Below are positions 1 to 9,775 of a stretch of 9,775 nucleotides of DNA, piece after piece. Numbering within the stretch: the stretch's first letter is position 1; each line of letters starts with the position of its first letter. Source of the stretch: a virus (lineage: Duplodnaviria > Heunggongvirae > Uroviricota > Caudoviricetes); the IMG/VR virus record IMGVR_UViG_2609459822_000006; one strand, 5' to 3'. A program made the position numbers and the translations under genes. Below the pieces are notes generated by a model. That model was not told where the DNA came from. It made no database searches and saw nothing but the letters and a program-made list of their open reading frames with translations.

Positions 1-289
1 CTTCCGTCATGGCACCGAGAAAATCATTCAGCGTACCTGGTCTGGAACCTTCATAGACGGTAATGGTTCCGGCATGTGAAGGCGGAAAACCTTCAACCAG
101 CAGGATAACGCTGTACTGGCCATACTCAACGTCCATGCTGTAACGCCCGGCTTCATCCGGATTTTCAGAGGCCACCGTGTTCACCAGTACAGTGGTGCTG
201 TTACGCTTTGCCTTCAGTTGAATAGTGCAGTTCTGTATTGGTTTTCCCGCACCATCTTTCAGCACACCTGAGATTTTTACTGCTGCCAT
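1..289 (-). CDS. stf: side tail fibre protein Stf, N-terminal part (partial; continues past the window start)
   Basis: Reverse complement from the ATG at 289-287 reads MAAVKISGVLKDGAGKPIQNCTIQLKAKRNSTTVLVNTVASENPDEAGRYSMDVEYGQYSVILLVEGFPPSHAGTITVYEG..., which matches the lambda Stf N-terminus as I recall it. It lies downstream of lom as in lambda. No stop within the window, so it is absent from the ORF track. Confidence 0.8.
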   Translation of the reverse strand, partial: MAAVKISGVLKDGAGKPIQNCTIQLKAKRNSTTVLVNTVASENPDEAGRYSMDVEYGQYSVILLVEGFPPSHAGTITVYEGSRPGTLNDFLGAMTE

Positions 290-300
290 ATCCACTCCAC

Positions 301-327
301 AAAAAAGCCCGCCTGAACCGACGGGCT
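301..327 (-). terminator. putative rho-independent terminator downstream of lom
   Basis: Inverted repeat agcccg (306-311) / cgggct (322-327) with a 10-nt loop. On the minus strand the hairpin is followed by a U-run (plus-strand aaaaa at 301-305). It sits between the lom stop (354) and the stf start (289). Confidence 0.5.
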
Positions 328-353
328 GTCATAACACTGTGTTACCTGGCTAA

Positions 354-953
354 TCAGAATTTATAACCGACACCCACGATGAAACCGTCAGTGCGCCAGT
401 CGCCACTGCCGGAACCTTCATAAGCAAGGTCAATGGCCACGGATTCGGTCGGGTTAAACTGCACGCCAGCCCCCCACGCCAGAGACGTGTTGCTGTGGCG
501 ACCGCCATCACTTCCGGTCAGCACATCGTGCGTTTTCCCCTTGTTGTCAGTTACGCGGAGATAATCCCCGGAGAACGTCGAAACACGGCTGTAAGCCACA
601 CCCGTCATCGCATAAGCACTGAACCATTCATTCACGCGTACAGACGGCCCCGCCATCACGCTGAACCAGCGGTTACGCACTGAATCTTCATGCCAGCGGG
701 TATCGCTGTAACGGGTAATCTGGCGATTCTTGTCTCCTGCATAGCTGAATGACGTCACCAGCCCCAGCGTGTCCGTAAATTCATAACGGTATTTCACGTT
801 AATGCCCTTCAGGTCATCGTTGCCGGGCATATCAGTATGGGACTGAAGATACCCGCCGCTTAGTGTGGACTGATGCTCTGCTGCACTCGCTGGCGTACCA
901 GCGGCGACCAGCCAGACTACTGCAGACAGAATAACAGCACATAATTTACGCAT
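354..953 (-). CDS. lom: Lom, Ail/Lom-family outer-membrane beta-barrel protein
   Basis: 199-aa ORF with a Sec-type signal peptide ([25 protein letters not shown], AxA cleavage motif) and a C-terminal aromatic residue (…VGYKF) typical of outer-membrane beta-barrels. Sequence matches lambda Lom from memory. GAGAGG Shine-Dalgarno lies 5-8 nt upstream of the ATG. Position between J and stf is as in lambda. Confidence 0.93.
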
Positions 954-977
954 AATTACCTCTCGCTTTTCTGCAAT

Positions 978-1001
978 AAAAAAGGCGCCATTTCTGGCGC
1001 C
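978..1001 (-). terminator. putative rho-independent terminator downstream of J
   Basis: Perfect 7-bp stem ggcgcca (984-990) / tggcgcc (995-1001) with a 4-nt loop tttc. On the minus strand it is followed by a U6 run (plus-strand aaaaaa at 978-983). It lies between the J stop (1021-1023) and the lom start (953). Confidence 0.6.
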
Positions 1002-1020
1002 CGTATTTGGGTTATAAAAT

Positions 1021-1770
1021 TCAACTGATACTGATACCGGCTGTTGATTTCTTCATCACGACAACAAGAAGGTCGCTGATACTGGTCGTTGGCGTCCAGT
1101 TATTAGCACCATATGAAGAAACATTGAAAGTCAGGGTGACATGACCGTGTCCGGCAGGCATATCAATGACGGATGAAAATACCCTGCTGACATCCGTCGC
1201 GGGTTGCTGAAAGATTTCCTGTCCGTTCTTCAGCACCTGCAGCTTACAGGTTGAATACCAGTATGACTGTTGGTTGTTGCTGTTGAAGTTTTCATGCTTA
1301 CCACCGCGAAACAGAACGGGTGGGATTACTATCTGACGGTCAAAAGCCTGATCATCGTACACAGTGACCGTTATTGTACCGCTGGCATAACTGCCATTTC
1401 TCGGAAAGGCTTTTCCCACCGTTTTGACAATATCACCTTCAATCTGGTTGGCAGACAGTTTTCCCAGAATCCGACAGTTCTGGTTAATCGTGACATTATT
1501 GAGCGTCCCGGAGTTCGCATTCACGTTACCGCTGATATCGGCATTTTTCGCCGTCAGCCGCCCGTCCGGTGTCAGGGAAAATACCGGAGGATTGCCGCCG
1601 CTGGTAATGGTGGGAGCCGTCAGATACTTCAGGAACACTTCGTTCATGAATATCTGGTTGCCCTGCGCCACAAACATCGGCGTTTCATTCCCGTTTGCCG
1701 GGTCAATAAACGCGATACGGTTAGCGGCAACCAGGAACTGGCTCAGTTTGCCTTCCTCTGTATCCTCCAT
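1021..1770 (-). CDS. J: tail tip host-specificity protein J, C-terminal fragment (gene interrupted by a frameshift)
   Basis: The 249-aa track ORF starts [41 protein letters not shown]..., matching the lambda J C-terminal region. This frame stays open upstream to 1851 and its J homology (…[28 protein letters not shown]…) begins near 1833, so the track's ATG at 1770 is not a real start. Confidence 0.85.
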
Positions 1771-4442
1771 GCTGAGGCCAAGCCCCGCGACATAATGCCT
1801 GCCGTCTTCGGTCTGCTCAATTTTGACGCCCCACTCTGGTCTTCCAGTTTCTTATTGACGGTCTGCGTGATTTCATTGCTGACATCCGTAATGGACGTCC
1901 TGATTTCAGCCAGGTCAGGCGCAAGCTGACCGTTATCAATCTGCGTCCACAGCTCCTGAGCCAGATGGGTTTTCCCTATCTCTCCTTTGAAAAAATCCAG
2001 ATAGCCGGATGCATCATCACTCGGCTGGCCAACAGCCTCCACAAATGCCGATTTGCCAACGGTGTTCACACTGCGGATGTAAAAATAATAATCACGGCCC
2101 GGTTTGATATTGATACTGGCGGCTATCCAGTACAGCGCCGTGCCAAGATAGCGGGCTGTGGTTTCAACCTGCCTGATATCGGTAATCCGCGTTTCCGAGA
2201 ACCAGAACTCAAACTGTACCGTCGGATCATAAACGGCAAGATGCGGCGTGGCGGTGATCTGAAAATAGCCCGGAGTCAGCTCAATCCGCGACGGCGCTGA
2301 CGGTGCTGCAATCCGGAACGATACCGACGCCGGATCGCCCTGCTGTCCCCACGCATTTACCGCCCGGACTGTCAGCCTGTAGTTTCCCAGCGCCAGTTGC
2401 GTGAATCGGTATGTGGTTTCCGTCGTCCGGGCCGTGCTGACCAGCCGCTCACTGCCGTCATCCGCTGCCACGGTCAGGCGAAGCATAAAGCTCACACCCT
2501 TCACCACCTTCGGCGTATCCCAGCGCGCCAGTACCTGATATTCCCCGCTGTCTGCGGTGACTTCGGCAGTCAGGTGCTGCACCGCTGGCGGCGTGACACC
2601 ATTCACCGTGCCGCTCTGGTCGCCGTCAAAGTGCGCCCCGTTATCCACGATGGCCTCTTTCTCCGGTACATGCTGCACGGCGGTGATGGCATACGTGCCG
2701 TCGTCGTTCTCACGGATACTCACGCAGCGGAACAGGCGCTGGCGCAGCGTCGGCAGCTTAAGCCCCCACACGCTGTATTCAGCAACACCGTCAGGAACCC
2801 GGCTCACTTTTACCTTCACGCCGTCGGTGACGGACTGAACCTCCACGCTGACCGGACTCCCCTGCCCGTCAACCAGGCTTATCAGCGTGGTGCCGGAGGC
2901 TGGCAGCGTGATTTCACGGTCGAGCGTCAGTGTCCGCATCTGGCTGTTCCCCGCCAGCACGCGCCCGCCGATGCTGATGCCCGCATAGTCATCATCGCAG
3001 ATTTCAATGACATCGCCCGGTACATGGCGAAGCCCTTCTGCGCCCACGCTGAAGTCCACGGTCTGCGTTTCCAGCAGCTCCGTTTTAATCAGCCACAGCC
3101 CGGCGCGGTGCGCCTGCCCCCGGCTGGTACAGCCAAAGGCATCCATCTTCGTGACGTTACGACCGTAACGGAGAATGGCCTGCGTATCTTCAACAAGCTC
3201 TGTCGCCGTCTCCCAGCCGTTATTCGGGTCAATCCAGTTCACCTCAACGGCATTATGGCGGTCCTTCAGGGCGCTGAAGCTGTAGCGGAACGGCGCGCCA
3301 TCATCCGGCATCACCACATTACTGCGGTTATAGGTCCACACCTTATCCGACGGTCGGTCCTGCACGAACGTCAGCGTCTGCCCGTTCCATACCGGCATAC
3401 AGCGCATCGCCGAGCAGAAATCACTGAGCACATCCCACGCCTTACGCTGTGTGGTCAGGTACGCATTACAGGTGATGCGCGGCTCCGTGCCGCCAAAACC
3501 GTCCGGCACCGACTGCTCGCAATGCTGGCCGATGACATACAGCGCCCATTTGTCCACATCCGCCGCACCAAGACGTTTCCCCATGCCGTAGCGCGGATGG
3601 GTCAGCATATCCCACAGACACCAGGCCATGTTGTTGCTGTATGCTGGCTTAAACGTTCCGTCCCAGATACCGCTGTATTGCCGCGTCTGCGGGTTATAGT
3701 TCGACGGCACCTGCAGAATGCGTCCGCGAAGATGATAATTACGGCTCACCTGCTGGCTGCCGAACTGTTCCGAGTCCACCTGCACGCCGACCAGTGCCGT
3801 GTTCGGGTAGCACTGTTTCACATCGATGATTTCAGTGTATGACGACCAGAGCGTTTTGTTCTGCAGCTGGTCTGTGGTGCTGTCCGGCGTCATCCTGCGC
3901 ATCCGGATATTAAACGGGCGCGGCGGCAGGTTACCCACCACCACCGAGGCCAGATACTGCGAGGTGGTTTTGCCCTTAATGGTGATGTCTTTTTCCGTCA
4001 CCCAGCCACCGTTACGCTGTATCTGAACCAGCAGGCGGACTTCCGACGGATTCCGGTCCCCCTTTGAGGTGGTTTCCACCAGTGCCTGCACACCGAAGGT
4101 AAAGCGCAGACGGTCGATGTTTGCAGACGTGATGGTCCGGGTGATCGGCGTGTCGTATTTCACTTCCGTACCCAGCACCGTCTCGGATCCGGAGGATTCA
4201 AATCCCTCCGGCGGTGTCTGCTCCTGTTCACCTGCCCGGAACACCACCGTGACACCGGCGATGTTGGTATTCCCCTCACTGTCCAGCACCGGTGTACTGT
4301 TCAGCAGCACGCTTTTTAATCCATCCACCGGACCTTCAATCGGCCCTTCGCTGATGGCATCAATCACACTCAGTAACTGCGTGGATTTCAGGTTGTCCTT
4401 CGCTTCGCGCGGGGTATGCCCCTTACTGCTGCCTTTACCCAT
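1743..4442 (-). CDS. J: tail tip host-specificity protein J, N-terminal 899-aa fragment (gene interrupted by a frameshift)
   Basis: Starts [44 protein letters not shown]…, near-identical to lambda J over most of its length. The frame leaves J homology near 1833 and ends at a stop at 1743-1745 after a short out-of-frame tail (…[27 protein letters not shown]). The J locus 1021..4442 is 3422 nt, not a multiple of 3. Confidence 0.9.
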
Positions 4443-4502: not shown

Positions 4503-5174
4503 TCATCGACCAATCACCACAACCTGACCACCGTCCCCTTCATCTGCCGTGCTGATCTCCTGAGATACCACACGTGACCCCACGCGCATTTCACCATACA
4601 GAACAGGCATAACATTGCCCTGGGCAACCATGTTATCCAGTGAGGAGAAATAGGTGTTCTGCTTACCGTTATCCGTTGTCTGTGTGCGGGGAGTTCTGGC
4701 TTTCGGTGCCAGCATCTGAGCCACACCGCCGAGCACCATACTGGCACCGAGAGAAAACAGGATGCCGGTCATACCACCGGCCCCAATGGCTGCCCCCCAT
4801 GCTGCAAGGGTGGCTCCGGCGGTAAAGAATGATCCGGCAATGGCGGCTGCCCCCAGGACAATCTGGAATACGCCACCTGACTTGGCCCCGGCGACTCTAG
4901 GAACGATATGAATCACAGCGCCATCAGGCAGAGTCTCATGTAACTGCGCCGTTAACCCGGACGTGCTGACGTCCCGCCCGGCAATCCGTACCTGATACCA
5001 GCCGTCGCTCAGTTTCTGACGAAACGCAGGGAGCTGTGTGGCCAGCGCCCGGATGGCTTCGGCCCCCGTTTTCACACGAAGGTCGATGCGGCGACCAAAT
5101 CGTTGTAAATCCCCGTAAAGGCAGATGCGTGCCATGCCCGGTGACGCCAGAGGGAGTGTGTGCGTCGCTGCCAT
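4503..5174 (-). CDS. I: tail assembly protein I
   Basis: 223-aa ORF, the same length as lambda gpI, with a matching sequence from memory and a glycine/alanine-rich hydrophobic C-terminal half. Its 5' end overlaps the 3' end of K by 103 nt, as I recall for lambda. GAGAGG Shine-Dalgarno upstream. Confidence 0.92.
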   Translation of the reverse strand: MAATHTLPLASPGMARICLYGDLQRFGRRIDLRVKTGAEAIRALATQLPAFRQKLSDGWYQVRIAGRDVSTSGLTAQLHETLPDGAVIHIVPRVAGAKSGGVFQIVLGAAAIAGSFFTAGATLAAWGAAIGAGGMTGILFSLGASMVLGGVAQMLAPKARTPRTQTTDNGKQNTYFSSLDNMVAQGNVMPVLYGEMRVGSRVVSQEISTADEGDGGQVVVIGR

Positions 5175-5815
5175 TTGTCGGTATACCTCTCTCGTTTGCT
5201 CAGTTGTTCAGGAATATGGTGCAGCAGCTCGCCGTCGCCACAGTAAATTGCGGCGTGATTCGGCACCGATGAACCAAAACAGCACAGCAGCACATCGCCC
5301 GGCTGTGCCGCTGACAACGGCACCTGATACAGCCCCGTCGCCTCCAGATTATCCAGATAGAGATTCTGGCCGTTACGCCACCAGTCATCCTCACGATGAA
5401 AGTCCGGCATCTCAATCCCCGCCAGATGATAAGCATCCCGGAACAGGGTGTAACAGTCCGTCACACCGTGCTCAAAGCGCCGCCCGGTAAGATGCGGCAC
5501 ACAGCGGAACTTATGAATCGCCCCCCGGCAGACCAGCCACCACGGCAAATCACTCTGCACCTGCAGCCGCCGGTCGGCTTCACTCAGCCAGGGCAGACCA
5601 CCGGGATGGCTGTGCACCAGCGCGACTATCTCACCCTGCATTTCTGCCTGCAGCCAGTCTTCCGGCGACATCCGGAAATACGCCTCAGGCTCACCGGAGA
5701 TATTCACGCAGGGAAAATATCTTTCCCCCTCCGGCGTTCTCACCACGAAGCCGCACGACTCCGCTGGCGCACATCGCCGGGCGTGCGCCAGAATCGCTGA
5801 TTCTGTCTCTGTCAT
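5072..5815 (-). CDS. K: tail assembly protein K (MPN/JAMM domain plus NlpC/P60-like domain)
   Basis: 247-aa continuous ORF. JAMM-type motif HSHPGGLPWLSEAD (HxH-x7-S-xx-D) in the N-terminal half; a Cys (GVTDCYTLF) and His (NHAAIY) in the C-terminal half are consistent with an NlpC/P60 peptidase fold. The classical lambda annotation starts at the internal Met (MSPEDWLQ…, ATG at 5671-5669, giving 199 aa); which start is used cannot be settled from sequence. Confidence 0.9.
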   Translation of the reverse strand: MTETESAILAHARRCAPAESCGFVVRTPEGERYFPCVNISGEPEAYFRMSPEDWLQAEMQGEIVALVHSHPGGLPWLSEADRRLQVQSDLPWWLVCRGAIHKFRCVPHLTGRRFEHGVTDCYTLFRDAYHLAGIEMPDFHREDDWWRNGQNLYLDNLEATGLYQVPLSAAQPGDVLLCCFGSSVPNHAAIYCGDGELLHHIPEQLSKRERYTDKWQRRTHSLWRHRAWHASAFTGIYNDLVAASTFV

Positions 5816-6519: not shown

Positions 6520-6848
6520 CAGTTCACCACCTGTTCAAACTCTGCGCTGAACTCAACACGCAGCATACTGACCCGCGACGACCATTTTGCGCAGGTCACC
6601 TTTATCTGCCGCCACTCATAAGGCGGCGTCCACAGAAAGGATTTCCAGCCTCCGTGCTCTGCCAGAAACGACTCCAGTACCATGGCCTCCCAACGGGGGA
6701 CAGAAAGCGTCACGCTGTACGTTTTCAGGTTGGCATTCAGCCCGGCAGGCGCTCGCTGGGAATAGCCATCACCAAAGCGCACCTTCCTGACGGAAGGAGC
6801 CGAAGCCACATCCATACCGGGTTTCACTTTCCAGCGGAAGGTTTTCAT
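6519..6848 (-). CDS. M: tail tip protein M
   Basis: 109-aa ORF MKTFRWKVKPGMDVAS…, matching lambda gpM in length and sequence from memory. Its ATG overlaps the H stop (ATGA). Confidence 0.93.
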   Translation of the reverse strand: MKTFRWKVKPGMDVASAPSVRKVRFGDGYSQRAPAGLNANLKTYSVTLSVPRWEAMVLESFLAEHGGWKSFLWTPPYEWRQIKVTCAKWSSRVSMLRVEFSAEFEQVVN

Positions 6849-8833
6849 CGTCCACCTCCGGAGAACAGACCACCATCACGCATCTGCCCGGTCACAACAT
6901 CCATTGCCGCCTTACGGGCCATGTCATACACCGCCTTCAGAGCAGCCGGACCTATCTGCCCGTTCGTGCCGTCGTTATTAATCACCACATGGTTATTCTG
7001 CTCAAACTTCCCGGACGCCTGCGACCGGCTGTCAGCCAGACTGCCCGGTGTACCGACATAACCACCGGTGGCATAGCCGCGCATCAGCCGGTAGAGATTC
7101 CCCACGCCAATCCGGCTGGTTGCCTCCTTCGTGAAGACAAATTCACCACGGTGAACAATCCCCGCTGGCTCATATTTGCCGCCGGTTCCTGTGAATCCTC
7201 CGGTTGCAAAATGGAATTTCGCCGCAGCGGCCTGAATGGCTGTACCGCCTGACGCGGATGCGCCGCCACCAACAGCCCCGCCAATGGCGCTGCCGATACT
7301 CCCGACAATCCCCACCATTGCCTGCTTAAGCAGAATTTCTGTCATCATGGACAGCACGGATCGGGTGAAGCTGCGCCAGTTTTGTTCACTGCCGGTCAGC
7401 ATCGCCGCCATATTCTGTGCAATACCATCAAAGGTCTGCGTGGCTGCACTTTTAACCTGCGACATACTGTCCGTGGCGCTCTCTTCCCACTCACTCCAGC
7501 CGGACTTCAGGCCTGCCATCCAGTTCCCGCGAAGCTGGTCTTCAGCCGCCCAGGTCTTTTTCTGCTCTGACATGACGTTATTCAGCGCCAGCGGATTATC
7601 GCCATACTGTTCCTTCAGGCGCTGTTCCGTGGCTTCCCGTTCTGCCTGCCGGTCAGTCAGCCCCCGGCTTTTCGCATCAATGGCGGCCCGTTTTGCCCGT
7701 TGCTGCTGTGCGAATTTATCCGCCTGCTGCGCCAGCGCGTTCAGGCGCTCCTGATAGGTGACCTTGTCGCCAAGTGCAGCCAGCTGGCGTTTGTACTCCA
7801 GCGTCTCATCTTTATGCGCCAGCAGGGATTTCTCCTGTGCAGACAGCTGGCGACGTTGCGCCGCCTCCTCCAGTACCGCGAACTGACTCTCCGCCTTCCA
7901 CAAATCCCGGCGCTGCTGGCTGATTTTCTCATTCGCTCCGGCATGCTTCTCCAGCGTCCGGAGTTCTGCCTGAAGCGTCAGCAGGGCAGCATGAGCACTG
8001 TCTTCCTGACGATCGCCCGCAGACACCTTCACGCCGGACTGTTTCGGCTTTTTCAGCGTCGCTTCATAATCCTTTTTCGCCGCCGCCATCAGCGTGTTGT
8101 AATCCGCCTGCAGGATTTTCCCGTCTTTCAGTGCCTTGTTCAGTTCTTCCTGACGGGCGGTATATTTCTCCAGCGGCGTCTGCAGCCGTTCGTAAGCCTT
8201 CTGCGCCTCTTCGGTATATTTCAGCCGTGACGCTTCGGTATCGCTCTGCTGCTGCGCATTTTTGTCCTGTTGAGTCTGCTGCTCAGCCTTCTTTCGGGCG
8301 GCTTCAAGCGCAAGACGGGCCTTTTCACGATCATCCCAGTAACGCGCCCGCGCTTCATCGTTAACAAAATAATCATCCTTGCGCAGATTCCAGATGTCGT
8401 CTGCTTTCTTAAACGCAGCCTCTGCCTTAATCAGCATCTCCTGCGCGGTATCAGGACGACCAATATCCAGCACCGCATCCCACATGGATTTGAATGCCCG
8501 CGCTGTCCTGTCTGCCCAGGTCTCCAGCGTGCCCATGTTCTCTTTCAGGCGGCGGGTCTGGTCATCAAACCCTTTCGTTGCGGCCTCGTTCGCCGCCTGC
8601 AATGCCCCGGTTTCATCGCCGGAACGCTGCAACTGAGCAACATACGCAATCTGCTCCGCCGTCACGTTATGGAACTGGCTTGCCATCGCCGTCAGCCCCG
8701 ACGTCGGGTCAGTGGTCAGCTTCCCGAAGGCTTCAGCGACCTTGTCCACCTCCACGCCGGATACAGAGGAGAAACGCGCCACACTCTGGCTGATGGACGC
8801 AATCTGATCACCACCACGCACACCGGCATTCAC
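6845..8833 (-). CDS. H: tail tape measure protein H, C-terminal fragment (gene interrupted by a frameshift)
   Basis: Translation …NAGVRGGDQIASISQSVARFSS…GGLFSGGGR matches lambda gpH. The track start at 8833 is a GTG picked by the ORF caller, not a real start; the frame is open upstream to 8869 and H homology in this frame begins at the codon at 8842-8840 (SALVNAG…). Confidence 0.9.
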   Translation of the reverse strand: MNAGVRGGDQIASISQSVARFSSVSGVEVDKVAEAFGKLTTDPTSGLTAMASQFHNVTAEQIAYVAQLQRSGDETGALQAANEAATKGFDDQTRRLKENMGTLETWADRTARAFKSMWDAVLDIGRPDTAQEMLIKAEAAFKKADDIWNLRKDDYFVNDEARARYWDDREKARLALEAARKKAEQQTQQDKNAQQQSDTEASRLKYTEEAQKAYERLQTPLEKYTARQEELNKALKDGKILQADYNTLMAAAKKDYEATLKKPKQSGVKVSAGDRQEDSAHAALLTLQAELRTLEKHAGANEKISQQRRDLWKAESQFAVLEEAAQRRQLSAQEKSLLAHKDETLEYKRQLAALGDKVTYQERLNALAQQADKFAQQQRAKRAAIDAKSRGLTDRQAEREATEQRLKEQYGDNPLALNNVMSEQKKTWAAEDQLRGNWMAGLKSGWSEWEESATDSMSQVKSAATQTFDGIAQNMAAMLTGSEQNWRSFTRSVLSMMTEILLKQAMVGIVGSIGSAIGGAVGGGASASGGTAIQAAAAKFHFATGGFTGTGGKYEPAGIVHRGEFVFTKEATSRIGVGNLYRLMRGYATGGYVGTPGSLADSRSQASGKFEQNNHVVINNDGTNGQIGPAALKAVYDMARKAAMDVVTGQMRDGGLFSGGGR

Positions 8834-9407
8834 CAGTGCGCTGCAGTGACTCGCTGGTCTGGTTAAACGTCAGCCCTGCGGCCTGTCCGGCTCTGGAGAG
8901 CGTCAGCATGCGATCGGCAGTCAGTCCGGACTGATTACCGGAAAGAACCAGGGTTTTATTAAACGCTGAAAGCGTGGAATCTCCCTGGTACCAGGCGTAC
9001 ACCAGCGCACCGGTCGCCACCGCCAGCGAGGTGGCCCCCACCATCGGCAGGGTGATCGCACCGGCAAGCCCCCTGAACATGGGGATCATCCCGCCGAAGG
9101 AGTCCTTCACCTGACCGCCCTGTTGCAGCAGGATCAGCCAGGGATTCTGACCACCTGCAAGCTGCGTGGCCACGTCGGTGAACTGTGCAGGCAGCATACG
9201 CATGGCAGCTTTATACTGCCCGACGGAAATCCCCGCTTTCTGTGCAGCCAGCGCCTGTCGGCTCAGCGACTGTTCAACGACTGCCGCTGTTTTTTTCGCA
9301 TCACTTTCCGTACCGGAAAAATGACGCCTGACTCTGGCCATCTGCTCGTCAAATCTGGCCGCATCCAGACTTAAATCAACGACCAGATCGCCTACCGGTT
9401 CAGCCAT
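8808..9407 (-). CDS. H: tail tape measure protein H, N-terminal fragment (gene interrupted by a frameshift)
   Basis: MAEPVGDLVVDLSLDAARFDEQMARVRRHFSGTESDAKK… matches the lambda gpH N-terminus from memory. AGGAGG Shine-Dalgarno lies 7 nt upstream of the ATG. The frame ends …QTSESLQRTGECRCAWW*, leaving H homology right after QTSESL. The H locus 6845..9407 is 2563 nt, one more than a multiple of 3. Confidence 0.9.
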   Translation of the reverse strand: MAEPVGDLVVDLSLDAARFDEQMARVRRHFSGTESDAKKTAAVVEQSLSRQALAAQKAGISVGQYKAAMRMLPAQFTDVATQLAGGQNPWLILLQQGGQVKDSFGGMIPMFRGLAGAITLPMVGATSLAVATGALVYAWYQGDSTLSAFNKTLVLSGNQSGLTADRMLTLSRAGQAAGLTFNQTSESLQRTGECRCAWW

Positions 9408-9775
9408 ACCGGACTCCTCCTGCGATCCCTTCTGATACTGTCATCAGCATTACGTCATCCTCCGTCATGTCCGCCACATACGGGGAAGCGGGGATAACTT
9501 CATTCCCGTCCGGGCCAAAACGAACGCCTCCGGCAAGCCCTGCCGCTTTCTGCATCAGCACATCATCTTCAGGCTCTTCGTCAGCCTCGCGCCGGTTCAG
9601 CAGACTGAAATCCAGCGGATGCATATCCGGATCGCTGAAAAACAGGCTGAGCACGGTGTACGTCAGCCCGGAAAAATGCATATCCAGCAGAACATCATGA
9701 AAATAATGGGTACTGTAAAAGCGGTGCCAGTCGGCATACTCCGTGGATGACATCCCGGCAAGCATGGCGCGCCAG
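9400..9775 (-). CDS. T: T portion of the G-T tail assembly chaperone (partial; frame open to the window edge)
   Basis: ORF immediately upstream of H whose stop overlaps the H start (ATGGCTGA), in the position of lambda T. The frame is open to 9775. In lambda, T is made only as a G-T fusion by a -1 programmed frameshift whose slip site would lie beyond this window, so the ATG at 9765 is probably not a real start. Identity is by position and general similarity; I do not recall the gpT sequence well. Confidence 0.75.
   Translation of the reverse strand, partial: WRAMLAGMSSTEYADWHRFYSTHYFHDVLLDMHFSGLTYTVLSLFFSDPDMHPLDFSLLNRREADEEPEDDVLMQKAAGLAGGVRFGPDGNEVIPASPYVADMTEDDVMLMTVSEGIAGGVRYG

Follow-up and report, generated by a model that had tools for sequence, protein, structure and literature searches.

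The lambda-type tail tip gene J of this prophage raises the question of whether its C-terminal end, which departs from that of lambda, points to a different receptor, and whether the frameshift that interrupts the gene marks a recombination junction, as a sequence-only reading had proposed. The window, by which is meant the whole 9,775-bp stretch of DNA that was analysed, is contig JHDK01000050.1 of assembly GCA_000601355.1, and the proteins of this contig bear the name Escherichia coli 1-110-08_S4_C1. Isolate 1_110_08_S4_C1, a gut E. coli, comes from a study of Tanzanian children (PMC6222053) that describes it as ST38, phylogroup D, O86:H18, with a genome of 5.50 Mb in 159 contigs drafted from 100-bp HiSeq reads with MaSuRCA 2.3.2, and that lists SRS568248 for its reads. 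The siblings from the same child in the accessible rows of the table are ST10 or ST155 (PMC6222053). As far as these rows go, they are therefore different clones and provide no independent assembly of S4_C1.

On its minus strand the window carries a lambda-type tail module in which H, M, L, K, I, J and lom stand, in this order, between a partial T and the first part of stf. Identity to the lambda homologues is 96-99% for T, H, M, L, K and I and just 46.5% for Lom. Apart from this contig, the K protein of the window occurs on a single short contig that belongs to an unrelated run. Such tail modules are multi-copy in most E. coli genomes, occupying a median of 2 places and a maximum of 15. In the module J is preceded by T, H, M, L, K and I and followed by lom and stf, and positions 1021-2010 are the 3' third of J, the tail tip attachment or host specificity protein, of a lambda-like prophage of E. 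coli 1_110_08_S4_C1. The features of J and its surroundings, in window coordinates, are as follows.

4442..1743, minus strand: first J open reading frame (ORF1), 899 aa; residues 1-870 are genuine J, from the hub through the FNIII/Ig domains into the first part of the alpha-helical shaft.
1832..2121, minus strand: phage-21/UPEC 26-1-type patch in a KKa019-type J, with the long type of alpha-helical shaft; the left edge is placed only approximately and may extend to ~2191.
1832..1834, minus strand: hybrid joint, at which 21-type '...GACCAGAGTG' meets KKa019-type 'GTGGGGCGTC...', the two sharing GTG only (1834-1832).
1770..1021, minus strand: second J open reading frame (ORF2), 249 aa; the called start is ATG 1770, and the frame is already open from the joint.
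1471..1833, minus strand: central straight fibre (beta-prism), lambda-like, in the frame of ORF2; PF09327.
1021..1470, minus strand: receptor-binding domain of the phage-21 type, the last 149 aa plus the stop codon; PF12421.
975..1002, minus strand: terminator-like hairpin and T run directly after the J stop codon; a terminator of phage 21 is annotated at the same place.

The domain content of the two reading frames is that of J. ORF1 matches PF24801, PF13550, PF24421 and PF24489 (E 1e-39 to 1e-42) and ORF2 matches PF09327 (E 2e-18) and PF12421, Ig_GpJ_C (E 1e-38), all with scores above the curated cut-offs, and the series runs from FNIII-A_GpJ and Phage-tail_3 through two Ig_J domains and the tail tip fibre to the C-terminal Ig_GpJ_C. 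A single frame of ~1130-1160 codons is not found, J being split into ORFs of 899 aa and 249 aa that overlap by 28 nt. Residues 871-899 of ORF1 (GASKLSRPK...RKAN) are out-of-frame read-through to the TGA at 1745..1743 and not J sequence. As recorded, J is a pseudogene or an assembly error.

J was aligned with the J proteins of lambda and phage 21 and with those of the prophages of UPEC 26-1, MRSN346647/KKa019, Lambda_4C10 and 23AR0806; the KKa019/MRSN346647 allele is referred to here as KKa-type. The first ~800 residues had been described as near-identical to lambda, and residues 1-800 are indeed 96.9% identical to lambda J and 99.0% to KKa019/MRSN346647 J. The KGEIGK segment and the final ~150 residues had been described as unlike lambda, and the alignments agree. 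Residues 801-866 (...NKKL) agree with UPEC 26-1 J at 100% identity and with phage 21 J at 97%; against lambda, the first 36 of these residues align at 61% identity, and nothing aligns past about residue 836. Residues 1-100 of ORF2 match KKa019 at 100% identity and lambda at 91.9%. Over the last 149 residues, identity to lambda drops to 48.3% in 143 aligned residues, so the high likeness that would have overturned the earlier description is absent; the same residues are 99.3% identical (148/149) to phage 21 and 100% identical to KKa019/MRSN346647 and to the intact J genes of many E. coli prophages. The peptides quoted in that description are all present in J.

The nucleotide sequence follows the same alternation. 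Sliding identity to lambda is 0.9-1.0 down to window ~2040, 0.25-0.4 over 1980-1835, 0.9-0.95 over 1803-1560 and 0.43-0.62 over 1500-1021, and identity to phage 21 over window 1443-1021 is 0.96-1.00. A divergent shaft, a lambda-like beta-prism fibre and a divergent receptor-binding domain thus alternate with respect to lambda, and the tail tip is a mosaic, as had been suspected. One part of the earlier description needs correction. The KGEIGK block had been grouped with the receptor-binding end, but it is alpha-helical shaft and not receptor-binding domain, the shaft being placed at this block by the domain order of lambda gpJ (PMC11101478). The alpha-helical shaft is 28 residues longer in the 21-type allele than in lambda.

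Each of the relatives resembles the window in some parts of J and differs in others. The J of KKa019/MRSN346647 (WP_019843055.1, 1132 aa, 'phage attachment tail tip protein J') is 100% identical over its last 249 residues, the prophages that encode it have the same flanking genes as the window (I upstream; lom and stf downstream), and window 1..1834 differs from the KKa019 prophage by 1 nucleotide. This J is intact and has a short lambda-type shaft, whereas in the window the shaft contains a ~290-nt patch of the 21 type that ends in the frameshifting joint. The J of phage 21 (UMO75436.1, central tail fiber, 1160 aa) and that of UPEC 26-1 (WP_065726070.1) share with the window 97-100% identity in the shaft segment and 99.3% in the receptor-binding domain, but their beta-prism fibre is of a different type, with 83-85% amino-acid and ~60-65% nucleotide identity directly after the joint. 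These two genes have 61 more shaft nucleotides than the window, are intact and are not followed by lom. Lambda gpJ (NP_040600.1; PDB 8iyk, 8xcj, 8xck) is the same gene in the same position with the same domain order and a ~92% identical beta-prism fibre, and differs in the shaft, unalignable past ~residue 836, and in the receptor-binding domain.

By these comparisons, J alleles combine at least three exchangeable modules, namely shaft, fibre and binding domain. Lambda J has a short shaft, a lambda-type fibre and a lambda-type binding domain; phage 21 and UPEC 26-1 J have a long shaft, a 21-type fibre and a 21-type binding domain; KKa019, MRSN346647 and Lambda_4C10 J have a short shaft, a lambda-like fibre and a 21-type binding domain. 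The J of the window has a truncated long shaft, a lambda-like fibre and a 21-type binding domain.

The frameshift had been placed at a boundary between divergent and conserved blocks, and it falls exactly where divergent sequence gives way to lambda-like sequence, at window 1834-1832. From 1832 to at least 2121 the window is 21-type, with 0-1 differences from phage 21/UPEC 26-1, and the bin 1801-2000 holds 95 differences from KKa019. Beyond ~2121, J is again ~99% KKa019-like, with scattered lambda-like variants. Compared with the 21-type allele the joined sequence is short by 61 nt, and compared with the KKa019-type allele it has 23 extra nt; this length mismatch puts the fibre and the binding domain out of frame.

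The joint is confined to this contig in every collection searched. None of 5,426 complete E. coli genomes has a match that covers a 121-nt probe across it, no exact match to it was found in GTDB species representatives, IMG/VR or JGI metagenomes, and the 899-aa J product is on record for this contig only. The simple loss of 61 nt from an allele that already combined a long shaft with a KKa-type fibre was considered and rejected, no such allele being sampled among complete genomes: a synthetic probe for the intact form gave no record covered to at least 80% among complete E. coli genomes. With no sampled parent, the window is a hybrid of two allele types rather than a deletion derivative of a sampled allele. 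Occurrence of the same lesion elsewhere was likewise rejected. One long ENA contig also carries the 249-aa ORF as a gene of its own, but the lesion there is an unrelated +1 C in a KKa-type J, and the remaining matches to this ORF are genes ending at contig ends.

The window has a second lesion, in the tape-measure gene H, where an extra base (+1 nt) at 8844 splits the gene into ORFs of 199 aa and 662 aa. The surrounding patch is about the same size as the J patch and is itself a mosaic with four allele-type switches, from KKa-type to SK1144-type (9160-8859), to KKa-like with the extra base (8858-8836), to SK1144-type (8835-8808) and back to KKa-type. The best match of a 241-nt stretch of H in any complete genome is just 94.6%, and the 199-aa H fragment is found on this contig only. 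In the microregion of the extra base the two H alleles are locally offset by 2 nt, so that a crossover between them would give 0 or +2 and not the observed +1.

Misassembly of two co-resident prophages is the probable origin of the joint in J and in our judgement more likely than a real illegitimate recombination, which we regard as a serious but lesser possibility. Two co-resident lambdoid prophage copies would have been merged in the short-read draft consensus, and the ~290-nt 21-type patch would have been linked to the KKa019-type backbone by an overlap of just 3 nt. The frameshift would then not be biological, and the real prophage would have an ordinary intact J. Misassembly is preferred because the contig carries two disabling joints unique to it, each in a ~300-nt patch of the other allele, and is elsewhere almost identical to intact prophages; because it is a short, isolated contig made up of multi-copy prophage sequence; and because it derives from a super-read/overlap assembly of 100-bp reads. 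Since the joint is found on one short draft contig alone, it may be a product of the assembler rather than of the cell. A joint on a 3-nt overlap is not a normal product of k-mer/overlap assemblers, an observation that runs counter to an artefact.

On the view that the joint is real, part of a resident KKa019-type J would have been replaced by a 21-type J segment brought in by an infecting phage or supplied by a second prophage, a course of events to which we give somewhat less than even weight. The replacement could have had homology at one end (window ~2120-2190) and the 3-nt microhomology at the other, as in homology-facilitated illegitimate recombination. Its outcome might have been a frameshifted J, an H damaged by a similar imprecise conversion and a tail-defective prophage. 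The GTG microhomology is a classic signature of illegitimate recombination that is hard to obtain from assembler overlaps, and the 21-type patch is a single unbroken tract; yet the joint has no second occurrence in complete E. coli genomes, GTDB representatives, IMG/VR or JGI metagenomes, and its source is a short-read draft contig. A genome as large as 5.50 Mb is likely to be polylysogenic, and complete genomes do show pseudogenised tail genes, stf fragments for example, true pseudogenes being frequent among prophage tail genes. In this contig, however, two independent disabling lesions lie in ~300-nt patches unique to it, in sequence otherwise close to intact prophages, and the +1 in H is not crossover-like. 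The recombination junction proposed from the sequence therefore holds in that the joint lies between two allele types; as a biological event it is less secure, the joint being unique to a short-read draft contig and perhaps made by the assembler.

The receptor-binding domain is shared with many intact genes. Its 450-nt region occurs at 95% nucleotide identity or more in ~1,083 complete-genome E. coli records, at 100% in some, and the same allele is present in phage 21, mEp460_4F5, ev017, 1H12, 4A7, Lambda_4C10 and several ECOR-derived phages. It is an ordinary, already known and widespread allele, carried by roughly a fifth of complete E. coli genomes, and because the domain is identical to this allele it is no new variant.

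Structural data bear on the receptor of this allele through a related domain. The best PDB match of ORF2 is 'A8 gpJ 713' (9wca/9wcb, E 8e-142), and lambda J is a weaker match (E 3e-91). A8 gpJ is 86.7% identical to the window over the last 249 residues and 82.6% identical over the receptor-binding domain, in which 26/149 residues differ, and the two domains are of the same family and architecture. Entry 9wcb also holds three chains of outer membrane porin C (OmpC) and is therefore evidently a gpJ-OmpC complex. A8 is a chimeric gpJ in which a natural J C-terminus is fused to lambda J; the chimeras were screened on a strain that lacks lamB, and OmpC in place of LamB is the receptor reported for A8 (10.1101/2022.09.30.509847). 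A8 is reported to recognise the OmpC of both MG1655 and EDL933, and a sister chimera, 1A2, the EDL933 allele only (10.1101/2022.09.30.509847); these two related chimeras already differ in the OmpC allele that they accept. The A8 binding domain is 100% identical to several J domains of Stx1a-converting phages. Identity to the A8 domain is 82% for the 21 type, 78% for the Stx2-1717 type, 44% for the 434 type and 42% for the lambda type, so the 21-type domain falls in the A8 clade, well apart from the lambda (42-48%) and 434 (44%) types.

Lambda gpJ binds LamB through loops L1-L4 of its receptor-binding domain (PMC11101478). The domain of the window does not belong to this LamB-binding type, with its 48.3% identity, its weaker PDB match to lambda J and an extra loop; this long loop, of 22 residues, is identical in A8 and the window and missing from lambda. 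An intact J of the 21 type would quite likely bind an OmpC-type porin, not LamB, and then undergo a lambda-like rearrangement of shaft and fibre, a reading adopted because of the homology to A8 gpJ, which was deposited with OmpC and reported to use it. The three C-terminal domains would dock on the porin trimer, and docking would presumably trigger the rearrangement of shaft and fibre as described for lambda. An identity of 82.6% to the A8 domain is too low to guarantee the same specificity. The suggestion that this J targets a different receptor accordingly gains plausibility from A8, by an indirect route, through homology to another allele.

It is unlikely that the 21-type receptor-binding domain still uses LamB and that the receptor is unchanged. 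Although quite different J proteins use LamB, for example those of mEpimmI phages (PMC11893012), the present domain is 48% identical to that of lambda and 83% to that of A8, which was selected on a lamB deletion and deposited with OmpC; and although the 26/149 residues that differ from A8 could sit in contact loops, and the literature searched gave no receptor assignment for phage 21, the long loop is common to A8 and the window and absent from lambda. Phages related to 21 may have featured in LamB studies, a point that carries no weight here.

A programmed ribosomal frameshift that joins the two J ORFs in translation is very improbable and was rejected, for although the ORFs overlap by 28 nt with the downstream frame open from the joint, and lambda-type tails do have a programmed frameshift in G/T, no slippery heptamer of the form X XXY YYZ occurs in 1900-1700, which leaves recoding without explanatory power, J is in one frame in lambda, phage 21, KKa019, MRSN346647, UPEC 26-1, 4C10 and 23AR0806, and the shift coincides with the 61-nt length difference at the allele switch.

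The locus as a whole is probably best explained by a modular J with an OmpC-type receptor, in a gene that was broken through the merging of prophage copies. The exchange of J C-terminal modules among lambdoid phages and the retargeting of lambda from LamB to OmpC are already established, and the sole unique feature here is the frameshifting joint, which stems either from an error of assembly or from a pseudogenising event private to this prophage. Where short-read draft contigs consist of multi-copy tail genes of prophages, a frameshift that coincides with an allele switch should accordingly be checked against the reads before it is given a biological reading. If the joint is real, it would be a small, clean case of illegitimate inter-prophage recombination. 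A genuine and very recent exchange between two lambdoid prophages, or of one prophage with a superinfecting phage, in gut E. coli ST38, with the transplantation of a ~290-nt shaft module, can be put forward only tentatively; if true, it would offer a snapshot of tail-tip module shuffling and of prophages turning tail-defective.

The non-lambda sequence of the window extends past the tail-tip gene J, and the elements at and beyond its 3' end, with the fibre peptide discussed below, are as follows.

306-327, minus strand: terminator-like hairpin with a T run, immediately 3' of lom
354-953, minus strand: lom, encoding an Ail/Lom-family beta-barrel, downstream of J
983-1002, minus strand: terminator-like hairpin with a T run, immediately 3' of J
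1647-1749: HepS-trigger peptide in the J beta-prism fibre (residues 8-50 of ORF2, the 249-aa second frame of the split J), matched by PDB 9oik

The window Lom is only 46.5% identical to lambda Lom, so that the non-lambda block spans the J receptor-binding domain through lom. An annotated terminator of phage 21 corresponds to the hairpin that follows J in the window. Phage 21 and E. coli UPEC 26-1, whose prophage has a phage-21-type J, are both without lom at the position downstream of J.

A frameshifted J that also gives ORFs of 899 and 249 aa is found at 1351-4750 of L010, a long contig from an unrelated long-read assembly (ENA ERZ27273242, contig_1178_polypolish). This J is the allele of the E. 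coli KKa019/MRSN346647 prophages (KKa-type) with one extra C (GTCGCG to GTCCGCG), explained either by an error in polishing or by the gene being a pseudogene of separate origin. This lesion is distinct from the joint of the window, and the identical ORF sizes are a coincidence.

Upstream of J, two further tail genes carry sequence that is rare or private to this contig.

5072-5815, minus strand: K, 247 aa, with JAB/MPN and NlpC/P60 domains
9407..8808 and 8833..6845, minus strand: tape-measure gene H as two ORFs, frameshifted by one extra base at 8844

The K annotation in the lambda record covers only the last 199 codons, in contrast to the 247 aa called here, and the exact K protein is very rare, occurring in this contig and one short Logan contig. 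The H insertion falls within a private mosaic patch (8808-9160) with four switches between KKa019-type and SK1144-type sequence; the top match to 8780-9020 among complete genomes reaches just 94.6%, and the sole record of the 199-aa H fragment is this contig. The contig starts inside the N-terminal domain of stf (1-289) and ends inside T (9400-9775). Contigs cut out of a prophage tail module at both ends in this way typically arise where an assembly breaks at repeats common to prophages.

In lambda J, residues 902-933 trigger HepS, the abortive-infection nuclease of Gifsy-1, with F924 equivalent to F41 of ORF2. The HepS-triggering peptide is kept in the beta-prism fibre of the window J, ORF2 residues 8-50 aligning with the 'J tail tip' of PDB 9oik. 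A J of this kind, if intact, would presumably act as a HepS trigger. In a comparison with the phage collection, engineered A8 gpJ (PDB 9wca/9wcb), the closest solved relative of the window domain, has a receptor-binding domain 100% identical to that of J in EHEC Stx1a-converting phages, and the A8-type OmpC-binding domain is thus naturally present in these phages.
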